The translations under genes and the position numbers were made by a program. 64,000 nucleotides of DNA from Escherichia phage EAWsc9. The notes below the pieces were generated by a model that was not told the origin of the DNA, did not search any database, and saw only the letters and a list, made by a program, of their open reading frames with translations. Of the stretch, positions 31,644 through 46,168 are shown one piece after another. The stretch lies in the sequence record PQ341120.1. One strand, 5' to 3'. Every line of letters starts with the position of its first letter. Position 1 is the stretch's first letter.

Positions 31644-32216
31644 TCAGCTTGTTAATTCGAGCCAATGTTTTCTGCATAAAGATACGTACGATTCATTCCC
31701 ACCGACTAACACTTGCTCGCCGTCCTTTACAGCAGCACCGTCGATTACTCTCGCGGTCATGGTTGCTTTCCGGCCGCAATGACAGACGCCCTTTAATTCA
31801 ACCAGTTTATCCGAAATAGCCAGAAGTCTGGCTGAACCGGGAAATAATTGACCCCGAAAATCTGTTCTTAACCCGTAACACATAACGGGGATATTGTAAT
31901 TATCAACCACTTGAGCTAACTGGTCAATTTGCTCTGGTAACAAAAATTGAGCTTCATCGACCAGGACACAGTGGATATCCTTTTGAGACTCGGCCCATTT
32001 ATAGAATTCAAACAGGTTCATGTCGGCCGTTACCAGGTTTGCTTCCTGGCTAATACCAATACGTGATTTAATTTCAGATTCCGAGTCCCGATTATCAATA
32101 ACAGGTTTTAGCAAAAGCACGCTCATTCCACGCTCTTTATAGGAATAAGCTGCAGTCAGCAATGAAGCTGTTTTGCCTGCATTCATTGCTGCGTAATGAT
32201 AAATTAAACTCGCCAT
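31644..32216 (-). CDS. tk: Thymidine kinase
   Basis: 190 aa; P-loop AAMNAGKT, C-terminal zinc ribbon CHCGRKA; similar to T4 Tk. Confidence 0.92.
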   Translation of the reverse strand: MASLIYHYAAMNAGKTASLLTAAYSYKERGMSVLLLKPVIDNRDSESEIKSRIGISQEANLVTADMNLFEFYKWAESQKDIHCVLVDEAQFLLPEQIDQLAQVVDNYNIPVMCYGLRTDFRGQLFPGSARLLAISDKLVELKGVCHCGRKATMTARVIDGAAVKDGEQVLVGGNESYVSLCRKHWLELTS

Positions 32217-37721: not shown

Positions 37722-38180
37722 TTATCCGAAAATTTGAGTCATTACCTTGTACATCGATTTGCCCATCACATACTGCCATTGACTCGGTTTAATCAGAGCA
37801 AATGCATCGAACTCTGGAACCGAACTACCATCCGGAAAGGTATGATAGGCAGAGCATTTACTATGTCTGAACTGCTCATGCTCGACCGGAACCGTGTACA
37901 AAAACAGGTGAAGATTTTTGTTATCTGAATAACGGAACTCACCTAAGTCTTTTAAGAATGCTGGGTCGTATTGGGTAAACCCGGTTTCTTCTTCGGTTTC
38001 ACGGATAGCCGCTTCAATCGGGGATTCACCAGCTTCAACATGACCCTTAGGGATGTCCCATTTGTGTGCAGGCATACCTGGTTTACGAGAACCAGTCACA
38101 CGACCCATGAATAACTCTTTATCTTCAGTCATGAAAATAATGCCGGCGGATAATTCTTTCACCTTGTTTTTCTTACTCAT
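37722..38180 (-). CDS. nudE: Nudix hydrolase
   Basis: Nudix box GHVEAGESPIEAAIRETEEETGF; ORF 37722..38213 (non-ATG start codon) trimmed to internal ATG; adjacent to e as T4 nudE (e.1). Confidence 0.8.
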   Translation of the reverse strand: MSKKNKVKELSAGIIFMTEDKELFMGRVTGSRKPGMPAHKWDIPKGHVEAGESPIEAAIRETEEETGFTQYDPAFLKDLGEFRYSDNKNLHLFLYTVPVEHEQFRHSKCSAYHTFPDGSSVPEFDAFALIKPSQWQYVMGKSMYKVMTQIFG

Positions 38181-38409
38181 CGTCACGTTTCCATGATTGG
38201 TTAAAAATATCACTCATTAAAAATTCAAGTCTATTTTCCAATGAAGGGCTTTCACTACTAGAAACTTGAACCATATAGTCAGCAATAGGTCGGAACATAT
38301 CCAAGTCAGTTTCTAAATCATCTTTGATTTTCTCTTCTGATGTACCTGTATCATAGGAATACAGATAAGAATCGCATGACTCAGATTTAATATAAATTGC
38401 AATACTCAT
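38173..38409 (-). CDS. Hypothetical acidic small protein
   Basis: 78 aa ORF. Confidence 0.45.
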   Translation of the reverse strand: MSIAIYIKSESCDSYLYSYDTGTSEEKIKDDLETDLDMFRPIADYMVQVSSSESPSLENRLEFLMSDIFNQSWKRDDE

Positions 38410-38993
38410 TTACGACATTCCTCAATAAAGGAGTTCAATGTATTTTTCTTAGTGATATCGTCATATACCTTTTTAACTTTAGAAATACGAAAAGGTACTT
38501 CAATAACCATAGTCCATAAAAATGATGCAATAAGCCCAGCGAGAGCAGTAGAAAAGCACGCACCCATTACAGCTACTGGTGCTTCATTTTTGCCTGTCAA
38601 GAAAAACCACAGGAATGGTAAAAATAAGATTCCAGCCCAGGCATAAAACCTGGAACAAATTAACTTATCAAATTCATCACTCCAGGTACGAAATCCATAT
38701 TTCTTGCTATAAGAAATTAATGGGTCGGGTGTCTGTTCTTTGAGCGGTTCTGGTTGATGCCCATTAATGATGTATCCCATTTTATATTCCTTAATTAAAA
38801 GCTCTTTCACATGACGATTGCATCGCGACCAATCAACATTTTCCACCTTGATTCCTTCATCACCATCATCAAGGTTCGCCCAATATTTTTTGGTAATCAT
38901 AAATTCGTCTCTTGATACAATTATACCTGCATTTTCTGCCCGGCGGATGAAGTTTACATCAACACCCATGCAGCCGGGTTCATAAAGGGCCAT
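38406..38993 (-). CDS. Hypothetical membrane protein with C-terminal FIEEC motif
   Basis: 195 aa; soluble N-domain, two C-terminal TM helices, ends ...LNSFIEECRK. Confidence 0.5.
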   Translation of the reverse strand: MALYEPGCMGVDVNFIRRAENAGIIVSRDEFMITKKYWANLDDGDEGIKVENVDWSRCNRHVKELLIKEYKMGYIINGHQPEPLKEQTPDPLISYSKKYGFRTWSDEFDKLICSRFYAWAGILFLPFLWFFLTGKNEAPVAVMGACFSTALAGLIASFLWTMVIEVPFRISKVKKVYDDITKKNTLNSFIEECRK

Positions 38994-39685
38994 TACCAGC
39001 CCTCCATGGGGAATTCCAGATATACTTGAGCATTAACGCGGATTTCATTGGTAACTTTATTAACACGGTCAGTTTTACGAGATACGCGACCAAACCAACG
39101 CCAACCGTTACTAACTGTTTTTGTTCCAGTATGCCATGTCTGCCAGTTGAATTCACATAATGTGCGGTCAGGAGCTTCTTGAACTAAAAGTTCACCTGCC
39201 TTGATTTTTTCCAGAACTTCCTGGTGCCACTGGCGATAGATAAGTTCGCCATCAGGAATCTGACTGAATTCTGCAGTTCCAAGAGCAAAATTAGTAGGGC
39301 AAACAGAAGCGTTAACCAGACCCAGGATGTGTTCAGAATGGTAACGAGGGTTATCATAATCAGGTTGTCCTGCTGTAATAAAATGTTGTCCTGCTGGAAT
39401 ATCTGGACGTGGTACATCATCATGGTGATACCCAGGGATAGCGGGATACCAACCAGGCATCAACATATGGACGCGAGAATCAAACACCAAATTATCAGGA
39501 CCATCAGTCCATTCTTTTGGTAGGTTATCAAGAAAACTGCGCGTGATTGGGCCACCATGCTTATGCGCAAATTCTGGATAGCAGTTAAAGAACATAGGCT
39601 CATTTTTGATTTGGTCATTACTGATATCTTGAGCAAATTGACCAACTTCACGCATTTGACTATTAAAAGTTTTTGAACTATTCAT
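38993..39685 (-). CDS. Hypothetical protein
   Basis: 230 aa ORF, ATG start verified. Confidence 0.55.
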   Translation of the reverse strand: MNSSKTFNSQMREVGQFAQDISNDQIKNEPMFFNCYPEFAHKHGGPITRSFLDNLPKEWTDGPDNLVFDSRVHMLMPGWYPAIPGYHHDDVPRPDIPAGQHFITAGQPDYDNPRYHSEHILGLVNASVCPTNFALGTAEFSQIPDGELIYRQWHQEVLEKIKAGELLVQEAPDRTLCEFNWQTWHTGTKTVSNGWRWFGRVSRKTDRVNKVTNEIRVNAQVYLEFPMEGW

Positions 39686-39744
39686 AATATTTTCCTCATT
39701 GATTGTGGGACCATTGTGTCATAGTCCCACTTGGATGTACACAC

Positions 39745-40704
39745 TTATTTTTCGAAAGGACGAATTAAATGTTGGTTAGCTTTGAAACGTTTAACATAGT
39801 CTTCGTGCCCCAGGGTGTTGTACATATTAACCACTTCCTGATAATGTTCCCAAGCATACTCGCGGAACCATCCAGAAGTAATGGAGGTGCAGACTTTTTC
39901 CAGAGCAATATGGAAGCTCACGGATGGAGAGATATTGAACTCATTGGGAACCTGCGAACGCTCCAGAGCGAGTACACATGCTTCTTCATAAACCCCTGCC
40001 AGTTTAATAATCTCAGGGAGTGCTTCAAATTTTTCACGCGAGGTCATAACTTCTGAATCATCCTTCATATAGAACTTATATGCAGGCTTATCAGCAAGCG
40101 CCACAGCCTCGTGGATGGAGTCATGGTCAAGGGTATAGATTGTATCATTAAAGAAAGTTTTCTTGCCCACGTCTAGTTTAGGGTGACTATATGACAATGT
40201 TTCTGCCTGGCGCTGCAGCATGATTTTATGCAGTTCGTCATTAAGAACAACACCCTTATTGCGAAGGTAATTAATATGACTCATTGTCTTCAGGAAGAAT
40301 GGATTGTTCTTCAGGTAACGATGAGACAGTTTAATTGCCAGACAAATATCAGGAGTCGCCCAATAGAAACCTGTAAGACGGTCTTTCTTAATATGATTTT
40401 CAGCGTATTTCAAGAGACGATAACTTGAGGTGAAATCTTCATCTTGAAGCTCACCAGTAATTTCTCGTACGTTAGTCAGGGCACGGACAATATAAGCTTC
40501 AAAATAGGTTTCTTTTCCATTGTACATACATTTAAAAGCTTGGACATCAGGGTTATCCACAGGAACATGAGCACCGAACATACGTGCTTTAAAGTGGTTC
40601 CAGGAGCCCTGGTCAGCGATAAAGTCCCAATCAGAGTTTTCAATTTTCTGACTTTCAATCAGACCAGCGTTATGTAATGCACGAGAACCAATAACTAACA
40701 TCAT
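39745..40704 (-). CDS. Hypothetical protein
   Basis: 319 aa ORF, ATG start verified. Confidence 0.55.
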   Translation of the reverse strand: MMLVIGSRALHNAGLIESQKIENSDWDFIADQGSWNHFKARMFGAHVPVDNPDVQAFKCMYNGKETYFEAYIVRALTNVREITGELQDEDFTSSYRLLKYAENHIKKDRLTGFYWATPDICLAIKLSHRYLKNNPFFLKTMSHINYLRNKGVVLNDELHKIMLQRQAETLSYSHPKLDVGKKTFFNDTIYTLDHDSIHEAVALADKPAYKFYMKDDSEVMTSREKFEALPEIIKLAGVYEEACVLALERSQVPNEFNISPSVSFHIALEKVCTSITSGWFREYAWEHYQEVVNMYNTLGHEDYVKRFKANQHLIRPFEK

Positions 40705-40895
40705 AATATTTTCCTCATTAGTAAAGACGAGTTACTTCATATTTTCCAATTGCCGATTTTTTCGCTTCAATTCGTGAGGCAGCAAGATTGGCGGCCTCTA
40801 GTGAAGAAAATTGAACCACTTGAGAAGTATTCTGTCTTACTCCACCTTGCGGGTGAGTGACAAAAACAATAAGAATATTATACATAATATTTTCC

Positions 40896-41096
40896 TCAAA
40901 TAATACCGTATGCGTAAATATCTCTTTTAATGCAGGAAACTACTTCTTCCAAAGAATCACAAACACGTTCTGTGGCGCCTGCGTAATCACCACTGATGGT
41001 TACTTTAATGCCATCAGAAACTTCCTGGAGATTAACCTCCAGTTGGTTGACTTTGGCTTCGTTCAGAACTTTGATTAATTCGTTTGCGATAGACAT
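40896..41096 (-). CDS. Hypothetical small protein
   Basis: 66 aa ORF. Confidence 0.4.
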   Translation of the reverse strand: MSIANELIKVLNEAKVNQLEVNLQEVSDGIKVTISGDYAGATERVCDSLEEVVSCIKRDIYAYGII

Positions 41097-41160
41097 TTTT
41101 ATTCTCCTGTTCTGATAACGTGATTGTCATCAGTTGATAGGAGTATAGTAACACAGTTTT

Positions 41161-41505
41161 TTAGACTTGTATACTGCTTCTACAATATTCTAAAAATAAT
41201 TTATCGTTGTTTACCTTATCCCAACGACGCCAAGATGGATTCCAGACCAGAGCGTTGTCACCGCAATCATTGAGCTTAAAGTGGTCGTAGTACATAGCTA
41301 TATGTCTGGTTTCGTCACCAGAGAACCCCAGTATATGCTCACCGTGGGTATGATACATATGATGATGCATTGAGAGGTCGCATTTGTAAAACATCTCACG
41401 TTTACCACGAACGAACAAGAAGGCTTGCTCATTCATATAGAATTCTTTATCTGTTTTCAAAAGATATTTGAATACCGAATCTTTATGCATAATTCCTCCT
41501 ACCAC
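41161..41505 (-). CDS. Hypothetical His-rich protein
   Basis: 114 aa; cluster MHHHMYHTHGEH suggests metal binding. Confidence 0.5.
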   Translation of the reverse strand: MVGGIMHKDSVFKYLLKTDKEFYMNEQAFLFVRGKREMFYKCDLSMHHHMYHTHGEHILGFSGDETRHIAMYYDHFKLNDCGDNALVWNPSWRRWDKVNNDKLFLEYCRSSIQV

Positions 41506-41520
41506 ATCCTTGTGATTAAA

Positions 41521-41748
41521 TTATTTTCCTAACGAAATACGAGTAGGTTTTTTACCGAAATATTCTTCATAGGAACCATCTAAACGACCCGCTTTAGACC
41601 GACAATACGAATCATACTTTTTGTAATAAGTCAACTCGTTATTATAACGTGGATGTCTATCAGCCATAATAATACTTAATGGCCAACCTTTGGCATAATC
41701 ACGAAGACCATTTATTTTACGAATATATCTTTTCTTTAATTTTAGCAT
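41521..41748 (-). CDS. Hypothetical basic small protein
   Basis: 75 aa; start overlaps upstream stop as ATGCTAA. Confidence 0.5.
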   Translation of the reverse strand: MLKLKKRYIRKINGLRDYAKGWPLSIIMADRHPRYNNELTYYKKYDSYCRSKAGRLDGSYEEYFGKKPTRISLGK

Positions 41749-41966
41749 GAGCTCGGGTACCAGATTTTACCGTCGGCGCGGGCAACGAAGGTACGACCAG
41801 CTTCTTCGCCGTAACAAGAGCTATTCAGCCAATCTTCAAGACGAACTTCACCGTCATAATCATCTAGCTCAACACCAAAATCCTGAGCAGAAGCCATATC
41901 TTTTACTTTCTTATACAGGGCAGCCAGTTCAAGAGCAGCTTTTTCTAATTCGTTAATATCAGTCAT
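41742..41966 (-). CDS. Small protein ending W-Y-P-S-S-C (paralog family member)
   Basis: 74 aa; C-terminus ...GKIWYPSSC. Confidence 0.55.
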   Translation of the reverse strand: MTDINELEKAALELAALYKKVKDMASAQDFGVELDDYDGEVRLEDWLNSSCYGEEAGRTFVARADGKIWYPSSC

Positions 41967-41976
41967 TTTTTATTCC

Positions 41977-42189
41977 TTAGCATTCGTAAGAGGAGGACAC
42001 CCAAGAGGTACCACTAATTGTAATACAACCATTATAAAGCGTGATATGTCGTTCTAAGTCACGAACACCATCAATGTAGATATCAGCTTCTTCGCGTTCT
42101 TCTTTACAAATCTGGATAACATTTTCAATAGCTGCCGCGGCAGTACGGATTGCACAATCTAATTCACGAGACATAACATTCCTTAACAT
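41977..42189 (-). CDS. Small protein ending W-V-S-S-S-Y-E-C (paralog family member)
   Basis: 70 aa; C-terminus ...SWVSSSYEC. Confidence 0.55.
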   Translation of the reverse strand: MLRNVMSRELDCAIRTAAAAIENVIQICKEEREEADIYIDGVRDLERHITLYNGCITISGTSWVSSSYEC

Positions 42190-42464
42190 TCAGCAGAAGA
42201 GGACACCCAACCACCATTTTCCAGGTCAGTTGTATAGTCATGAGTATTAACAATAGCCCATTCAGGATGACCATGTTCTTCCCAATGAGCAAGGTCAGCT
42301 TTCAGGGCGCCAGGAGAATAATAGTCACCGCCCATACCGCGAGCAGGGTATATATTAAAATGAGTCTCATATTTGTCTGCAATTTCCTCGGCACGACGAA
42401 TAGCTTTATGGATGTCATTTACTGCGTTAGCCAGTTCTTTATTTTTACGGTAATCATTCATCAT
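42183..42464 (-). CDS. Small protein ending W-V-S-S-S-A-E-C (paralog family member)
   Basis: 93 aa; C-terminus ...GGWVSSSAEC; shares EEIADxY core with next gene. Confidence 0.55.
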   Translation of the reverse strand: MMNDYRKNKELANAVNDIHKAIRRAEEIADKYETHFNIYPARGMGGDYYSPGALKADLAHWEEHGHPEWAIVNTHDYTTDLENGGWVSSSAEC

Positions 42465-42473
42465 AACGTTTCC

Positions 42474-42764
42474 TTAGCACATTGCCGAAGAGGAGACCCA
42501 AGCACCAACTGTAACGACACCGTTTTCAACTTCACCGCCGTTGTTTTCAATTTCATCTTTAAACCACTGGGAGCACTCATAACCGACAGGATAATATGTA
42601 CGGCCTGAACCATAATCACCGGTACCGAATTGGATACCATATTCATCTGCGATTTCTTCACAGTGTTTTTCAATTTCAGAGGTCTTATTTAGAAGAGAAT
42701 AGATGGCTTTTTCTGCAGATTTCTCATCATAATACTTGGGGATAGCAATTTCAATTTTATTCAT
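42474..42764 (-). CDS. Small protein ending W-V-S-S-S-A-M-C (paralog family member)
   Basis: 96 aa; C-terminus ...GAWVSSSAMC. Confidence 0.55.
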   Translation of the reverse strand: MNKIEIAIPKYYDEKSAEKAIYSLLNKTSEIEKHCEEIADEYGIQFGTGDYGSGRTYYPVGYECSQWFKDEIENNGGEVENGVVTVGAWVSSSAMC

Positions 42765-43114
42765 GATTTACATTCCTTAATAAAGGTTTCAAGGTCATTA
42801 CGTTTTGTTTTGTCTAGGAACTTATTATACTCAGCCATTGCTGAAGCATATCTCTTCCGACTAGGAGCATTCACGGCGTTTGTGTGACAAATATCATACA
42901 CAACCGGGATAAAATAAGCCACAACAGCCGGAGCGATTATCATAAAGAAACCCATCTCAATGGGCATGACTCCCTCGATTGCAGCCATAACCGTGGTCAT
43001 TACCAGACCAACCAAACCACCGAGCATACCGGTGACAATTCCCAATAATAAATTGCCGCCAATATCATATTCAGCCAATTGATAAACATGTGATGCAAGA
43101 CTAGGCCGTTCCAT
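42761..43114 (-). CDS. Hypothetical membrane protein with C-terminal FIKEC motif
   Basis: ORF 42761..43207 trimmed to internal ATG with AAGGAGG upstream; two TM helices; ends ...LETFIKECKS. Confidence 0.5.
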   Translation of the reverse strand: MERPSLASHVYQLAEYDIGGNLLLGIVTGMLGGLVGLVMTTVMAAIEGVMPIEMGFFMIIAPAVVAYFIPVVYDICHTNAVNAPSRKRYASAMAEYNKFLDKTKRNDLETFIKECKS

Positions 43115-43460
43115 TACGAACCTCCTTAATAAATTCTTCGGCACATTTAATTTTGTGCTCTTCTTGTAGGGAAACACATTTTTGTTCCCACTCTTTAACT
43201 CGCCCACGATATCCTTTATTCATATGATTTTGATGCCACACATTTATCAATATCATACTCAGGACCGTAATAAAAGGAGCTGCGATTATTAGCGCCCAGG
43301 CAACTCCAACACTAATGATATCCATATCCCCGCAAAGCACCATCATTATAACCCCAACGATGCACATGGACAAAGCTCCAAATGGAGGCATAAGGTCTTT
43401 ATCAATCTTGTCTGCGTATACAAATTTTTCTGGTTTACTTGGCAGATATAGCGTTCGCAT
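43101..43460 (-). CDS. Hypothetical membrane protein with C-terminal FIKEV motif
   Basis: ORF 43101..43496 trimmed to internal ATG; two TM helices. Confidence 0.45.
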   Translation of the reverse strand: MRTLYLPSKPEKFVYADKIDKDLMPPFGALSMCIVGVIMMVLCGDMDIISVGVAWALIIAAPFITVLSMILINVWHQNHMNKGYRGRVKEWEQKCVSLQEEHKIKCAEEFIKEVRNGTA

Positions 43461-44007
43461 TTTGAACCCCTTTAGCATATTCACGACATTCAGCAATAAA
43501 ACGATTAAGCTTACGTTTCCGTTTACGACCCTCTAATGTGTACTCAGCCGCCAAATCAAGAAGCTCATCTTTATCATAATTTTTAATATCAGTATAAGTT
43601 GGGCGGCGGTCAACCATTCCAAAGTGGTCACCATTTTCCAACATCAAATAACACACCAAATGGTCATCATCGTCCGCATTAATAAGCTGCTTATAATCAC
43701 TTGGTTCATTTAACGCATACACAGAATAACTCAGCCCAGCGAATTCCACTCGTTGAATACCCAGATTTACGTCAATAATTTCCAAGGCATCTGCAAAAGA
43801 AAGGTCTTCAGCTAAAGCAAAAATAAAAGGCAATTTGGTAGTATCGCCGCGACTTGTTGTTCTTCTTAAGAAATCATTGGAATAACCCAAGTCGCGGCGG
43901 ATTCTATAAAGAACTGTGTTAGTTTCAGTGGCAAGACCACTACCGCCAAACCATTCCACATTTGATAAAAGATTATCATATAAAGTCATAATTTTCTCCT
44001 CTCCCAA
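43435..44007 (-). CDS. Hypothetical protein with C-terminal FIAEC motif
   Basis: 190 aa; ends ...KLNRFIAECREYAKG... Confidence 0.5.
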   Translation of the reverse strand: MGEEKIMTLYDNLLSNVEWFGGSGLATETNTVLYRIRRDLGYSNDFLRRTTSRGDTTKLPFIFALAEDLSFADALEIIDVNLGIQRVEFAGLSYSVYALNEPSDYKQLINADDDDHLVCYLMLENGDHFGMVDRRPTYTDIKNYDKDELLDLAAEYTLEGRKRKRKLNRFIAECREYAKGVQNANAISAK

Positions 44008-44031
44008 TTAGGGGGCTTTGCCCCCTTTATC

Positions 44032-44625
44032 TTACTTAAGTGAATTGATGTATTCTTCAATGTCAGCGGACGTGGTATCCACACCAACCTGTGGACCTTT
44101 GAAGGTTTCAACACGCATCAAGGTGTCTTCAATATCAATCTTAGTCAATGCAGCGATTTCAACAACATCATCTGCAGTCGCAATACCCAGGGCAGATACC
44201 TTACGGGTTTCGCGGATGTATTCCAGTTTAACAGCTAGTTCCTGACGAGAATCATCCAGCTCTTTAACTTTCAATTTAATTTCATTACGCATTTCAACAT
44301 AATCGTCTGCCTTCTTACGAAGTTGTTTAGCAGTGCGACGATACAGGAGACCCAGTTTAGCATGGACCTGGACATCCGCACCATCAGCAATCAGTTTGCG
44401 GATTTCACGCTCTTTTGAGGCGGCAAGTTGGTCTTTTTCATTCGCTAACTCGCGGATGCGTTTTTCTTCATTAACAGACTTAACGTGGGCGGTCTGGAGC
44501 TCAGTAATCTTGTCAATCAGGGTAGACGCCGCTTGAGTATATTGGTCTTCAATAGACAGGTTTTTTGCCATTGCAGTACCCAGTTTGGAGCGGATGAATT
44601 CAACAAGTTTCTTTAAAGTATTCAT
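44032..44625 (-). CDS. Coiled-coil protein, tentatively PspA/IM30-like
   Basis: 197 aa, almost entirely heptad-type helical sequence with N-terminal amphipathic helix; family assignment tentative. Confidence 0.45.
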
Positions 44626-44697
44626 GGTATTTCCTTCAGTTGGTTAATGTTTTATTATCCAGGGAACATACTATCATGTTCCCATTAAAGCACTAAT

Positions 44698-45003
44698 TTA
44701 GATTTTGTTTTCCTGCACACCATAATAAAGTTCATCAGACACAATATCCAGGATGCGGCGAACATATTCATCATGGTATTGGCAGTCAAAATCAAATGCA
44801 ACAGTAGTTTCCGCTTCACGAGTGAATTTAACTTGCACATTCAGGTGATTAACAACGTTAGTTAATTTATCAGTAAAGAACTCTTTTGCTACCGCCTGTT
44901 GGACTTGCACTTTAAACTTGGTGTTGCGAATCATATTTTCAGCAGATGCGAAATTACCAGTTTTATCAAAGTCAACAAGCGCCAGGTTGATGATGAATTT
45001 CAT
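44698..45003 (-). CDS. Hypothetical protein behind repeated promoter/leader cassette
   Basis: 101 aa ORF. Confidence 0.5.
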   Translation of the reverse strand: MKFIINLALVDFDKTGNFASAENMIRNTKFKVQVQQAVAKEFFTDKLTNVVNHLNVQVKFTREAETTVAFDFDCQYHDEYVRRILDIVSDELYYGVQENKI

Positions 45004-45086
45004 TTTATTCTCCAGTGTTTTATTTGGTAACTCAGTATGGAATCATTATGCCTTAAAGCAGGGGGCTTGTATACCCCCTTTTTGAA

Positions 45087-45554
45087 TTAAATTTCAAATT
45101 CTTTGCGGAAGTTGGAAGCATAAGACTGAACTGATGCTTTGTTGAATCCAAACTCACGCACAATCATATCAATAACAGCTCTGCGAGCAGCACCATTAGA
45201 CATATTAACAGTTTTGAACATATCATAGCATAAATCTTTGTTGCTCATACCGGAGCGTTTAGGTGCCTTACGTTCAGCTTTTGGTTCAGCTTTTGGTTCA
45301 GCTTTTGGTTCAGCTTTAGGAGTAGGTTTAACTTCTGGTTTAACCTGTCCATCATTCAGACCTTTAAAAATTTTACCTGCCAGAGTTGCCAGTTTAGCAG
45401 CTTCGCCACGAGTGATACCAAATACTGCCGGGTTAAATGAAATACCTTCAGCTGCCAGACGTTTGAAGAACATACGTGCTGCGGATTGTGCTTCAGCTTC
45501 AGAAGAGTTGTTTAATGCCAGCTTAACGTACTTAACCAGTTTTGAAGTTTTCAT
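45087..45554 (-). CDS. Hypothetical protein with (PKAE)n repeat and conserved C-terminal domain
   Basis: 155 aa; PKAEPKAEPKAEPKAERKAPKR linker; C-terminal GAARRAVIDMIV...VQSYASNFRK shared with 45637..46062. Confidence 0.55.
   Translation of the reverse strand: MKTSKLVKYVKLALNNSSEAEAQSAARMFFKRLAAEGISFNPAVFGITRGEAAKLATLAGKIFKGLNDGQVKPEVKPTPKAEPKAEPKAEPKAERKAPKRSGMSNKDLCYDMFKTVNMSNGAARRAVIDMIVREFGFNKASVQSYASNFRKEFEI
45277..45318. repeat. 12 bp tandem repeat (about 3.5 copies) inside CDS
   Basis: gcttttggttca x3 plus partial copy; encodes the PKAE repeats on the minus strand. Confidence 0.8.
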
Positions 45555-45636: not shown

Positions 45637-46062
45637 TTATTTTTGAGCTTTGCGGAAGTTGGAAGCATATGACTGAACAACAGTCTTTTTGATATCATAG
45701 GTGTTAACCAGAACATCAATCAGGGCGCGGCGAGCTGCACCATCTGCCATATCAATTTCTGCAAATGCCTGGAAGCAAATGTCACGAGCATTACCAGATT
45801 TGGACTGGATTTTTTCTTCTTTAACTTCTTCAATTGGGAATTCAATCATTTCAGCTTGGATTAATTCAATGATAGATTCTTTTGACTGTTTGGTGTTTAC
45901 CTTCAGTTCAGAATTAAGGGACTTAGCGATGGCAACAATCTGGGTTGAAGTCAGATGAATAAGTGCATCTTCACGAATGCAGATTTCACATACTTCGTCG
46001 GCAACCATTTTGTTAGTGATGCGGGTAACAGAGAATGCAGAAGTCAGGGTCAGGAAGTTCAT
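45637..46062 (-). CDS. Hypothetical protein, paralog of 45087..45554 C-terminal domain
   Basis: ORF 45637..46143 (non-ATG start codon) trimmed to ATG preceded by conserved leader ...ggagaaataaaATG. Confidence 0.55.
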   Translation of the reverse strand: MNFLTLTSAFSVTRITNKMVADEVCEICIREDALIHLTSTQIVAIAKSLNSELKVNTKQSKESIIELIQAEMIEFPIEEVKEEKIQSKSGNARDICFQAFAEIDMADGAARRALIDVLVNTYDIKKTVVQSYASNFRKAQK

Positions 46063-46168
46063 TTTATTTCTCCAAAGTTTTGTTTGATTCAGTGTGTAAC
46101 TCAGTATGGAATCATTATGCATCCAGTCAATTCGGATGTACACTACTTTTTGAAGAAATATTAAAAAT

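Follow-up and report, generated by a model that had tools for sequence, protein, structure and literature searches.

Clamp-docking peptides are exemplified by the sliding-clamp-binding tails of T4 gp43, gp33 and gp55 on gp45, and by the bacterial QL[SD]LF clamp motifs. Translational coupling in which the preceding gene bears the Shine-Dalgarno (SD) sequence in its 3' end, and stop and start overlap as ATGA, is common in T4. Small membrane proteins are known to recruit PspA-family proteins, as in the pairs LiaI-LiaH of Bacillus subtilis and PspB/PspC-PspA of E. coli: small inner-membrane proteins are encoded beside a gene of the PspA/IM30 family, and their cytoplasmic part does the recruiting (PMC7619361). 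In the hyperplastic regions of T4-type phages, PeSL promoter/stem-loop cassettes mediate modular shuffling (PMC2839356, PMC4122927). Here we compare with these systems a stretch of 64,000 nucleotides from Escherichia phage EAWsc9 (PQ341120.1; the whole stretch is called the window below), in which homologues of the T4 genes e.2, e.3, e.4 and e.5 encode proteins with a common short tail at or near the C-terminus.

Although no phage has been studied better than T4, no function is assigned to its genes e.2 to e.6, and PHROGs, Pfam and NCBIfam class them as unrelated unknowns. Our analysis indicates that at least six families, from about ten genera, have one peptide tag in common and are encoded beside a gene for a putative PspA/Vipp1-like protein, e.6; a set of hypothetical proteins thereby becomes a testable system. 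Purifying selection acts on the tag as protein. We lean, with some reserve, towards the view that it would serve in the cytoplasm to dock or assemble its carriers on a common partner at the inner membrane, translational coupling being secondary.

The shared tail

We took the region from e.6 to the lysozyme gene e from 15 T4-like phages of about ten genera and from two metagenomic contigs; the genera sampled were Gaprivervirus, Tequatrovirus, Mosigvirus, Dhakavirus, Kanagawavirus, Karamvirus, Winklervirus, Tulanevirus, Gualtarvirus, Pseudotevenvirus and Ceceduovirus. The 15 phages, together with the two metagenomic relatives, hold 53 instances of the tail, from whose residue frequencies at each position we derive the consensus Φ(-3)-E-x-F(0)-[I/V](+1)-K-E-C(+4)-R(+5)-[K/G]. 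A strict form of the motif, [FYW][IVL]xxC[RK] within 32 residues of the C-terminus, occurs in 41 of the 260 proteins encoded in the e.6-to-e regions of the 15 phages, while within-protein shuffles, used as the control, give 0.32 +/- 0.55 (maximum 3). Hence the motif is not due to chance.

The tails are kept in the orthologues of T4, RB69 and JS10. Those of T4 read EKFVKECREY in e.5, MKFVKESRCKSQS in e.4 and KEFVIDCRKIK in e.3; those of RB69 read EQFIMECREY (e.5), EFVKEIRCK (e.4), ENFIKECRK (e.3), ERFITECRNLR (e.2) and ENFIKECRGK (ORF133). Akin tails are present in the Klebsiella phages Roth34 and HMGUkp2, the Enterobacter phages Entb_45 and UFV01, Serratia phage X20, the Aeromonas phages phiAS4 and CC2, Providencia phage PSTRCR_127, Citrobacter phage CfP1 and the two metagenomic contigs. 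The e.2 gene of T4 itself (L006, 1653-1961) is truncated: it encodes 102 residues without a tail and leaves a gap of about 160 nucleotides before nudE. In other Tequatrovirus contigs (L012, 7722-8210; L013, 4227-4715) e.2 encodes 162 residues ending in NNFITECRKLK and overlaps nudE. We found no prior description in the literature of a C-terminal tag shared across T4-type phages.

The genes concerned in the window

By sequence similarity the window is part of a T4-like phage of the genus Gaprivervirus; positions 38000-45000 are closest to Escherichia phage ECML-359 (96.4%) and Shigella phage SP18 (94.1%). Genes were named from the annotations of SP18 and ECML-359 and by comparison with T4 and RB69, and on this basis four of them are homologues of T4 e.2, e.3, e.4 and e.5. 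All genes of the region are on the minus strand; these four sit downstream of e.6 and upstream of nudE and of the lysozyme gene e. In T4 the order e.5-e.4-e.3-e.2 is contiguous, whereas the window and RB69 have about 3.7 kb of extra small genes between e.3 and e.2. The features are as follows (TM, transmembrane segment).

44032-44625, minus strand: e.6 homologue, 197 residues, with moderate confidence PspA/Vipp1/ESCRT-III-like; conserved, heads the cluster, candidate common partner
44010-44026: GC-rich hairpin AGGGGGCTTTGCCCCCT (as read on the plus strand), between e.6 and the e.5-like gene
43435-43989, minus strand: e.5-family gene, 184 residues, soluble, phrog_8788; overlaps the start of e.4 by 26 nucleotides
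43483-43500, minus strand: tail motif FIAECR of the e.5-family protein, free of an SD
43101-43460, minus strand: e.4 homologue, 119 residues, two TM; ends ...EEFIKEVRNGTA-stop
43116-43133, minus strand: tail motif FIKEVR of e.4, holding TAAGGAGG, the SD for e.3
42761-43114, minus strand: e.3 homologue, 117 residues, two TM; ends ...ETFIKECKS-stop
42767-42784, minus strand: tail motif FIKECK of e.3, holding AAGGAA, the SD for the next gene
42474-42764, minus strand: gene coupled after e.3, first of four tandem 'WVSSSxxC-stop' genes (41742-42764)
41161-41490, minus strand: fifth tail carrier, 109 residues, soluble, phrog_9796; ends ...KLFLEYCRSSIQV-stop, motif at 41179-41196
38406-38993, minus strand: e.2 homologue, 195 residues, a soluble N-domain followed by two TM and the tail; ends ...NSFIEECRK-stop
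38412-38429, minus strand: tail motif FIEECR of e.2, holding GAGGAA, the SD for the 78-residue gene at 38409
38173-38409, minus strand: gene coupled after e.2, 78 residues, MSIAIYIK...; kept after e.2 in RB69, JS10 and others

A sequence-only reading of the window had named four reading frames with FI-type tails. All four exist on the minus strand and are real carriers; two of the tails had been misread and the fifth carrier, at 41161-41490, had been overlooked. The motif of e.4 is there, while its end, given as ...EEFIKEVRNG, lacked the final 'TA' that the true terminus ...EEFIKEVRNGTA-stop has. The e.5-like protein does contain FIAECR, only not as its end: the motif is internal, it stops 15 residues before the stop codon, and the protein ends ...NRFIAECREYAKGVQNANAISAK-stop. 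Nor is this gene likely to begin at TTG 44007, where it had been placed. The start is most likely ATG 43989, since the SD GGAGAGGAG precedes this ATG and the homologues begin with MTLY or MSLY. Three carriers had been said to have two TM before the tail, and hydropathy bears this out for e.2, e.3 and e.4; the e.5-like protein has none. In the rest of the 64-kb window the thymidine kinase gene (31644-32216; YVSLCRK) is the only real gene with a C-terminal match, and we rejected it as a chance match.

Selection on the peptide and placement of the Shine-Dalgarno sequence

Four positions of the motif are kept in nearly all of the 53 instances, F in 47, I/V in 49, C in 43 and R in 46; K(+2) and E(+3) are found in 26 and 23. 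The arginine is written with all six codons (AGA 21, CGT 11, AGG 6, CGA 4, CGC 2, CGG 1) and the cysteine with TGT 26 times and TGC 16 times; for the lysine AAA (16) is twice as frequent as AAG (8), which would form an SD. Information content is high at the first two codon positions and low at the third. The low information at third positions and the varied placement of the SD show that it is the peptide that is selected, the SD being fitted in where the codons permit. Purifying selection on the protein thus holds the motif.

The overlapping junctions of the window illustrate this placement. The e.5-like gene and e.4 overlap by 26 nucleotides, e.4 and e.3 by 14, e.3 and the next gene by 4, and e.2 and the next gene by 4. 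At the e.2 junction GAGGAA lies 9 nucleotides ahead of ATG 38409; at the e.3 junction AAGGAA lies 9 nucleotides ahead of ATG 42764, with an ATGA overlap of stop and start; and at the e.4 junction TAAGGAGG lies 6 nucleotides ahead of ATG 43114, the start of e.3. At these junctions the SD is thus found 6-9 nucleotides before each ATG, inside the upstream coding sequence, and the overlapping genes are probably translationally coupled. The FIAECR of the e.5-like protein is encoded by TTTATTGCTGAATGTCGT, which contains no SD; the SD of e.4, AAAGGGG, is inside the e.5-like gene, 12 nucleotides further downstream. The earlier suggestion that the DNA of the motif supplies the downstream SD therefore stands for e.2, e.3 and e.4 and fails for the e.5-like gene.

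Over all 53 instances the SD is within the pair x1x2 (positions +2 and +3) in 17 and within the arginine codon and the one after it in 12 (AGG A, AGA GG, CGA GG). In the remaining ones it is further downstream, not detected, or there is no close following gene; tail carriers of the last kind are found in Roth34, phiAS4 and UFV01, as well as at 41161-41490 in the window, where no gene starts close downstream of the stop codon. The motif holds the SD of the following gene only where its codons permit. We regard the case as a clean example of how an SD that lies within a gene could wrongly be taken as the reason why a sequence is conserved, when in fact it travels with a motif selected as protein.

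What the carriers have in common besides the tail

The sequence-only reading took the proteins for a family of membrane proteins, and this part of it we had to abandon. PHROGs assigns the four proteins to four families, with weak cross-matches of e.3 to the e.2 family (0.002) and of e.4 to the e.3 family (0.003). We ran hhalign on small family alignments, with the tails and with the last 14 residues removed. With the tail, e.4 and e.3 align with 96% probability over 92 collinear columns; without the last 14 residues the probability is 9.4%. Between e.3 and e.2 only 16 tail columns align, and 6.1% is left without the tail; e.4 against e.2 without the last 14 residues gives 0.1%. Tail-less hhalign thus detects no significant similarity among e.2, e.3 and e.4, and the BLASTP alignment of e.2 with e.3 is confined to the last 17-19 residues. 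What is shared is the tail, since the similarity between families collapses once it is removed.

Soluble proteins bear the same tail. Proteins at the e.5 position in different genera form one very divergent soluble family, collinear with e.5 of T4 and RB69, in whose alignment the only invariant columns are N94 and the tail residues F164 and C168. No TM segment is present in this family or in at least seven further soluble carriers, and their bodies are unrelated. The tail-less bodies of the 53 carriers fall into 30 BLAST clusters, two-TM and soluble alike. Judged by these comparisons, the tail is a module found on two-TM and on soluble proteins, and not the mark of one membrane-protein family. 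As had been foreseen as one way in which the family idea might fail, essentially no homology can be demonstrated past about 12-16 tail residues; the other half of that forecast, that ribosome-binding site (RBS) constraints would then explain the motif entirely, did not come true.

It is possible that e.3 and e.4 are old paralogues, a relation that is not demonstrable without the tail. The e.2, e.3 and e.4 types do have a common architecture, in 23 two-TM carriers: two TM separated by a short loop, and then a basic C-terminal segment of about 45 residues that ends in the motif; a collinear alignment agrees with this. A homologue search with e.3 alone gave close relatives only, and scans of IMG/VR with e.4 gave 3-7 loci. 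A profile built from e.3, e.4 and the C-terminal half of e.2 matched only eight of 1.84 billion representative proteins, which shows how narrow the families are. One of the eight, P0150, was rejected as a spurious repeat protein; P0151 joins an e.3-like body to an e.4-like tail, FIREVRNAKTR. Pfam, NCBIfam and PHROGs give no function for any tail carrier.

Anatomy and orientation of the tail

The hydrophobic positions -3, 0, +1 and +4 of the tail follow the pattern i, i+3, i+4, i+7, as in a short amphipathic helix, with acidic residues at -2 and +3 and basic ones at +2, +5 and +6. The shared element thus appears to be a C-terminal amphipathic helix of about ten residues rather than a common fold. 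In the two-TM carriers (n=23) the loop between the TM has on average 0.4 lysine or arginine residues, while the C-terminal segment of about 44 residues has 10.4; because of this difference the positive-inside rule predicts that the tail faces the cytoplasm. About 30 charged residues separate the second TM from the tail in membrane carriers.

Searched against the PDB, the tail profile has as its best match the N-terminal interfacial helix of Methanocaldococcus SecE (1rh5_B / 4v4n_A7; EFIEECRR) at E ~0.1, which is probably a coincidence between amphipathic helices. Mimicry of host SecE was considered and rejected, E. coli SecE, Sec61-gamma and B. subtilis SecE all scoring at most 1 bit. The T4 capsid-targeting sequence MKTYQEFIAE was likewise set aside: it scores 4.4 bits only and is implausible for membrane proteins.

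The e.6 protein

With moderate confidence we consider e.6 to be a PspA/Vipp1/ESCRT-III-like protein. A profile of ten e.6 sequences has Vipp1 and PspA as its top PDB matches (E 0.011-0.055), collinear over residues 1 to ~140, and further matches to these proteins extend to E 0.5. An AlphaFold2 model built from 36 sequences has a mean pLDDT of 76.5 and predicts helices at 4-15, 25-80 and 86-145, of which the last two form a long hairpin with pLDDT above 85; its eight best Foldseek matches in the PDB are all Vipp1 or PspA (probability 0.99-1.00, TM-score ~0.43-0.52, E ~4e-3), and archaeal CdvB2 appears lower in the list. The e.6 homologue P0057 is named 'phage shock protein A' by JGI. A Pfam scan of a single e.6 sequence gave no match, PspA_IM30 included. 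The C-terminus of e.6 may also resemble the MIM1 motif of ESCRT-III. We found no paper in the literature that links T4-type phages to PspA and nothing relevant on e.2 to e.6, only general structural work on Vipp1 and PspA, and a 2025 review of ESCRT-III-like systems makes no mention of bacteriophage-encoded homologues.

Association of the tails with e.6 and a possible mechanism

In all phages examined the tail carriers are grouped directly behind e.6 and share one orientation, and the gene that directly follows e.6 bears a tail in 16 of 17 phages. This is so even where e.6 identity is about 30%, as in CfP1 and phi1_146010 (both FIHSCKK) and in L026 (FINECKE). In the Slopekvirus phiEap-3 (L028, 1-12001) nudE is present, and the syntenic 12 kb contain neither an e.6 or e.5 homologue nor a tail. 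Further, the tails of one phage can change together. All five tails of the metagenomic T4-like contig L027 (4917-8600) have K at +5 (MCKK, QCKGK, RCKNV, LCKGQK, QMKSN), against R in 46 of 53 overall, and both tails of CC2 (L023) have C-[I/V]. Such lineage-wide switches are consistent with one shared constraint on all tails. A compositional cause of the lysines in L027 was rejected, its GC content of 36.9% being no lower than that of phages that keep R.

As we picture it, the tail helix would link a variable set of accessory proteins to a single shared partner at the inner membrane. First among the candidates for this partner would be a polymer of e.6, by analogy with LiaI-LiaH and PspB/C-PspA; alternatively, the tails might bind one another in a tail-tail assembly. 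Translational coupling, and occasional recombination at the repeated SD-ATG junctions, would be secondary consequences of tight gene packing.

Alternative explanations

Could the RBS alone account for the motif, in that TTTATTAAGGARTGT must supply an SD at the right spacing for an overlapping downstream gene? Three of the four window junctions do use AAGGAA, GAGGAA or TAAGGAGG within the motif, 6-9 nucleotides before the next ATG, and K-E (AAG GAR) is the commonest x1x2 pair in the coliphage members. Precisely this pair, though, is the least conserved part of the motif, with lysine mostly written as AAA; arginine uses six codons; and F, I/V, C and R persist in the variants FINDCR, FISRCR, FVDYCR, FIKYCR and WVKGCR, whose x1x2 holds no SD. 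Moreover, the SD lies elsewhere in most instances, some carriers have no close next gene, and the e.5-like motif of the window is SD-free. RBS constraint, and with it translational coupling as the cause of conservation, which had been offered earlier, is already contradicted by these observations, and we give it next to no credence. Still less can be said for the idea that a few short C-termini are alike by chance: the motif is indeed brief, and the unrelated thymidine kinase does match it by chance, but the excess over shuffles (41 against 0.32) and the orthologues of about ten genera that keep it already contradict such a view. More deserving of thought is shared ancestry by itself, with e.2, e.3, e.4 and the other two-TM proteins as diverged paralogues, the tail as their slowest-evolving remnant with no specific shared function, and the soluble carriers arising by fusion. 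The collinearity of e.3 and e.4, which are equal in length and TM positions and align at 96% over 92 columns, speaks in its favour, as do the weak PHROG cross-matches, the composite P0151 and the adjacency of the genes, as in tandem duplicates. We nevertheless find this improbable: without the tail the similarity is gone (9%, 6%, under 1%), soluble proteins with unrelated bodies carry the tail, and a functionless remnant would not outlast, as the best-conserved part, bodies that are no longer recognisably alike between genera, or change from R to K in each of the five tails of a single lineage.

Two further explanations grant the tail a role of its own. It might be a generic in-plane membrane anchor, an interfacial amphipathic helix on the cytoplasmic face of the inner membrane with no protein partner. 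MinD and FtsA have C-terminal membrane-targeting helices, and the C-terminal position of the tail, its hydrophobic periodicity (-3, 0, +1, +4) with basic residues flanking, and the match of its profile to the archaeal SecE interfacial helix NQKIEQLKEFIEECRR (E ~0.1) would all suit such an anchor. Against this, acidic residues at -2 and +3 and a near-invariant F, C and R are not typical of helices that bind lipid, since these accept many hydrophobic and basic substitutions; the helix is short, at about ten residues; and the SecE match is not significant, with E. coli SecE at -1.3 bits. To our mind an anchor of this sort is no likelier than shared ancestry. The other explanation sees tail, SD and ATG as repeats kept for micro-homology, by which cassettes are gained, lost and shuffled in a hyperplastic region. 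Boundary repeats that mediate shuffling are documented in T4-type phages (PMC2839356, PMC4122927), and the 3.7 kb of extra genes between e.3 and e.2, present here and in RB69 and not in T4, fit in with this. A case in its favour is JS10 (L015, 9100-9200, compared with window 43101-43470), from which e.4 is missing exactly between the near-identical SD-ATG junctions AAAGGGGTTCAAAATG and TAAGGAGGTTCGTAATG, so that the e.5-like tail is fused to the last e.4 residues and coupling to e.3 is kept. Yet these endpoints are in the SD-ATG repeat, outside the peptide motif, and the DNA of the motif is free at synonymous sites, the opposite of a recombination signal at the DNA level. The variation at these sites speaks against a role of the tail itself at the level of DNA, and we judge the recombination explanation quite unlikely. 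What the JS10 deletion does indicate is that repeated SD-ATG junctions permit the precise removal of coupled genes.

We thus return to the docking or assembly tag, and several points weigh against it. The loci were collected through e.6, which biases the count of co-occurrence, and tails outside the cluster were scanned in this 64-kb window only. The putative link to e.6 draws on synteny and on a single phage used as negative control, read in its syntenic region. The assignment of e.6, itself of moderate confidence, depends on a sequence E of ~0.01, a Foldseek E of ~4e-3 and a TM-score of ~0.45, and hhalign of e.6 against one E. coli PspA sequence gave only 13% probability. The cysteine is not strictly required, because e.4 and the 'e.2b' group have V, I, S or M in its place. 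The AlphaFold2 model of the e.5-like protein (pLDDT 39.6) is too poor to place its tail as free or packed. Five e.6 columns differ between phages with R-type and K-type tails; they are too few and confounded by phylogeny, and we did not use them as evidence.

Other features of the region

The hairpin at 44010-44026, directly 3' of e.6, has a counterpart at 45060-45079, two genes upstream; both are GC-rich (GGGGGC...GCCCCC) and lie in intergenic gaps. They may be elements of RNA stability or processing rather than terminators, since no T-run follows them on the coding strand. Promoter and terminator scans of the region gave nothing informative.

A second C-terminal motif family exists in the cluster. 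The tandem small genes at 41742-41966, 41977-42189, 42183-42464 and 42474-42764 (minus strand) all end in W-[V/Y]-[S/P]-S-S-x-x-C-stop, the four endings being GAWVSSSAMC, GGWVSSSAEC, TSWVSSSYEC and KIWYPSSC. The family is also found in RB69, JS10, Entb_45, HMGUkp2, X20, UFV01 and L027; the protein of 42474-42764, the only member of the four that was scanned, matches phrog_899. Inside the insertion between e.3 and e.2, positions 39745-40704 (minus strand) encode a protein of 319 residues with the Pfam domains DUF7277 and DUF7275, conserved in many genera (RB69, JS10, X20, Entb_45, HMGUkp2, UFV01, L027). The genes at 45087-45554 and 45637-46143 (minus strand) are adjacent paralogues with a common C-terminal ...VQSYASNFRK region, and the first has a (KAEP)n repeat.

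Comparison with known systems

The coupling that is common in T4 is seen at the e.4-e.3, e.3-next and e.2-next junctions. All that it can explain here is why K-E (AAGGAR) or R-G (AGAGG/CGAGG) codons are preferred; F, I/V, C and R it leaves unexplained. With the PeSL cassettes the locus has in common repeated boundary sequences in a plastic region and precise gain or loss of genes, as in the e.4 deletion of JS10; PeSLs, though, are non-coding promoter-terminator elements of tens of bases, while here coding tails and SD-ATG junctions are repeated and the peptide is selected.

Clamp-docking peptides resemble the tail in that a very short motif at or near the C-terminus recurs on proteins of a single genome that are not homologous, and is kept as protein sequence. 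Their sequence is different, and in our case the hub is only a candidate and the carriers are accessory membrane and soluble proteins from one operon-like block.

With PspA, Vipp1 and IM30, the bacterial ESCRT-III proteins, e.6 appears to share an N-terminal amphipathic helix, a long alpha-helical hairpin and a length of about 200 residues; it differs in that a single sequence has no Pfam PspA_IM30 match and the scores are weak. It is conceivable, although we think it rather unlikely, that T4-type phages carry their own ESCRT-III/PspA-like membrane-maintenance module, in which an e.6 polymer would recruit adaptors by the Φ-E-x-F-[I/V]-x-x-C-R helix. The adaptors would be a changeable set, two-TM proteins of the e.2, e.3 and e.4 types and soluble ones of the e.5 type. 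If this were true, the module could keep the inner membrane energised in infection or counter membrane-targeting host defences, and it would represent both the first PspA system encoded by a phage and the first case in which a bacterial-type ESCRT-III protein has a recruitment code based on a motif.

The nearest parallel to such recruitment is that of PspB/PspC with PspA and of LiaI with LiaH. The tail carriers have no Pfam or NCBIfam match to the PspB, PspC or LiaI families at E<=1, and E. coli PspC reaches -0.9 bits with the tail profile. The likeness is one of arrangement: e.4, e.3 and e.2, two-TM proteins with predicted cytoplasmic tails, are encoded downstream of e.6 in the same orientation. 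The difference is that here several proteins, soluble ones included, carry one C-terminal motif, and that all are encoded by a phage.

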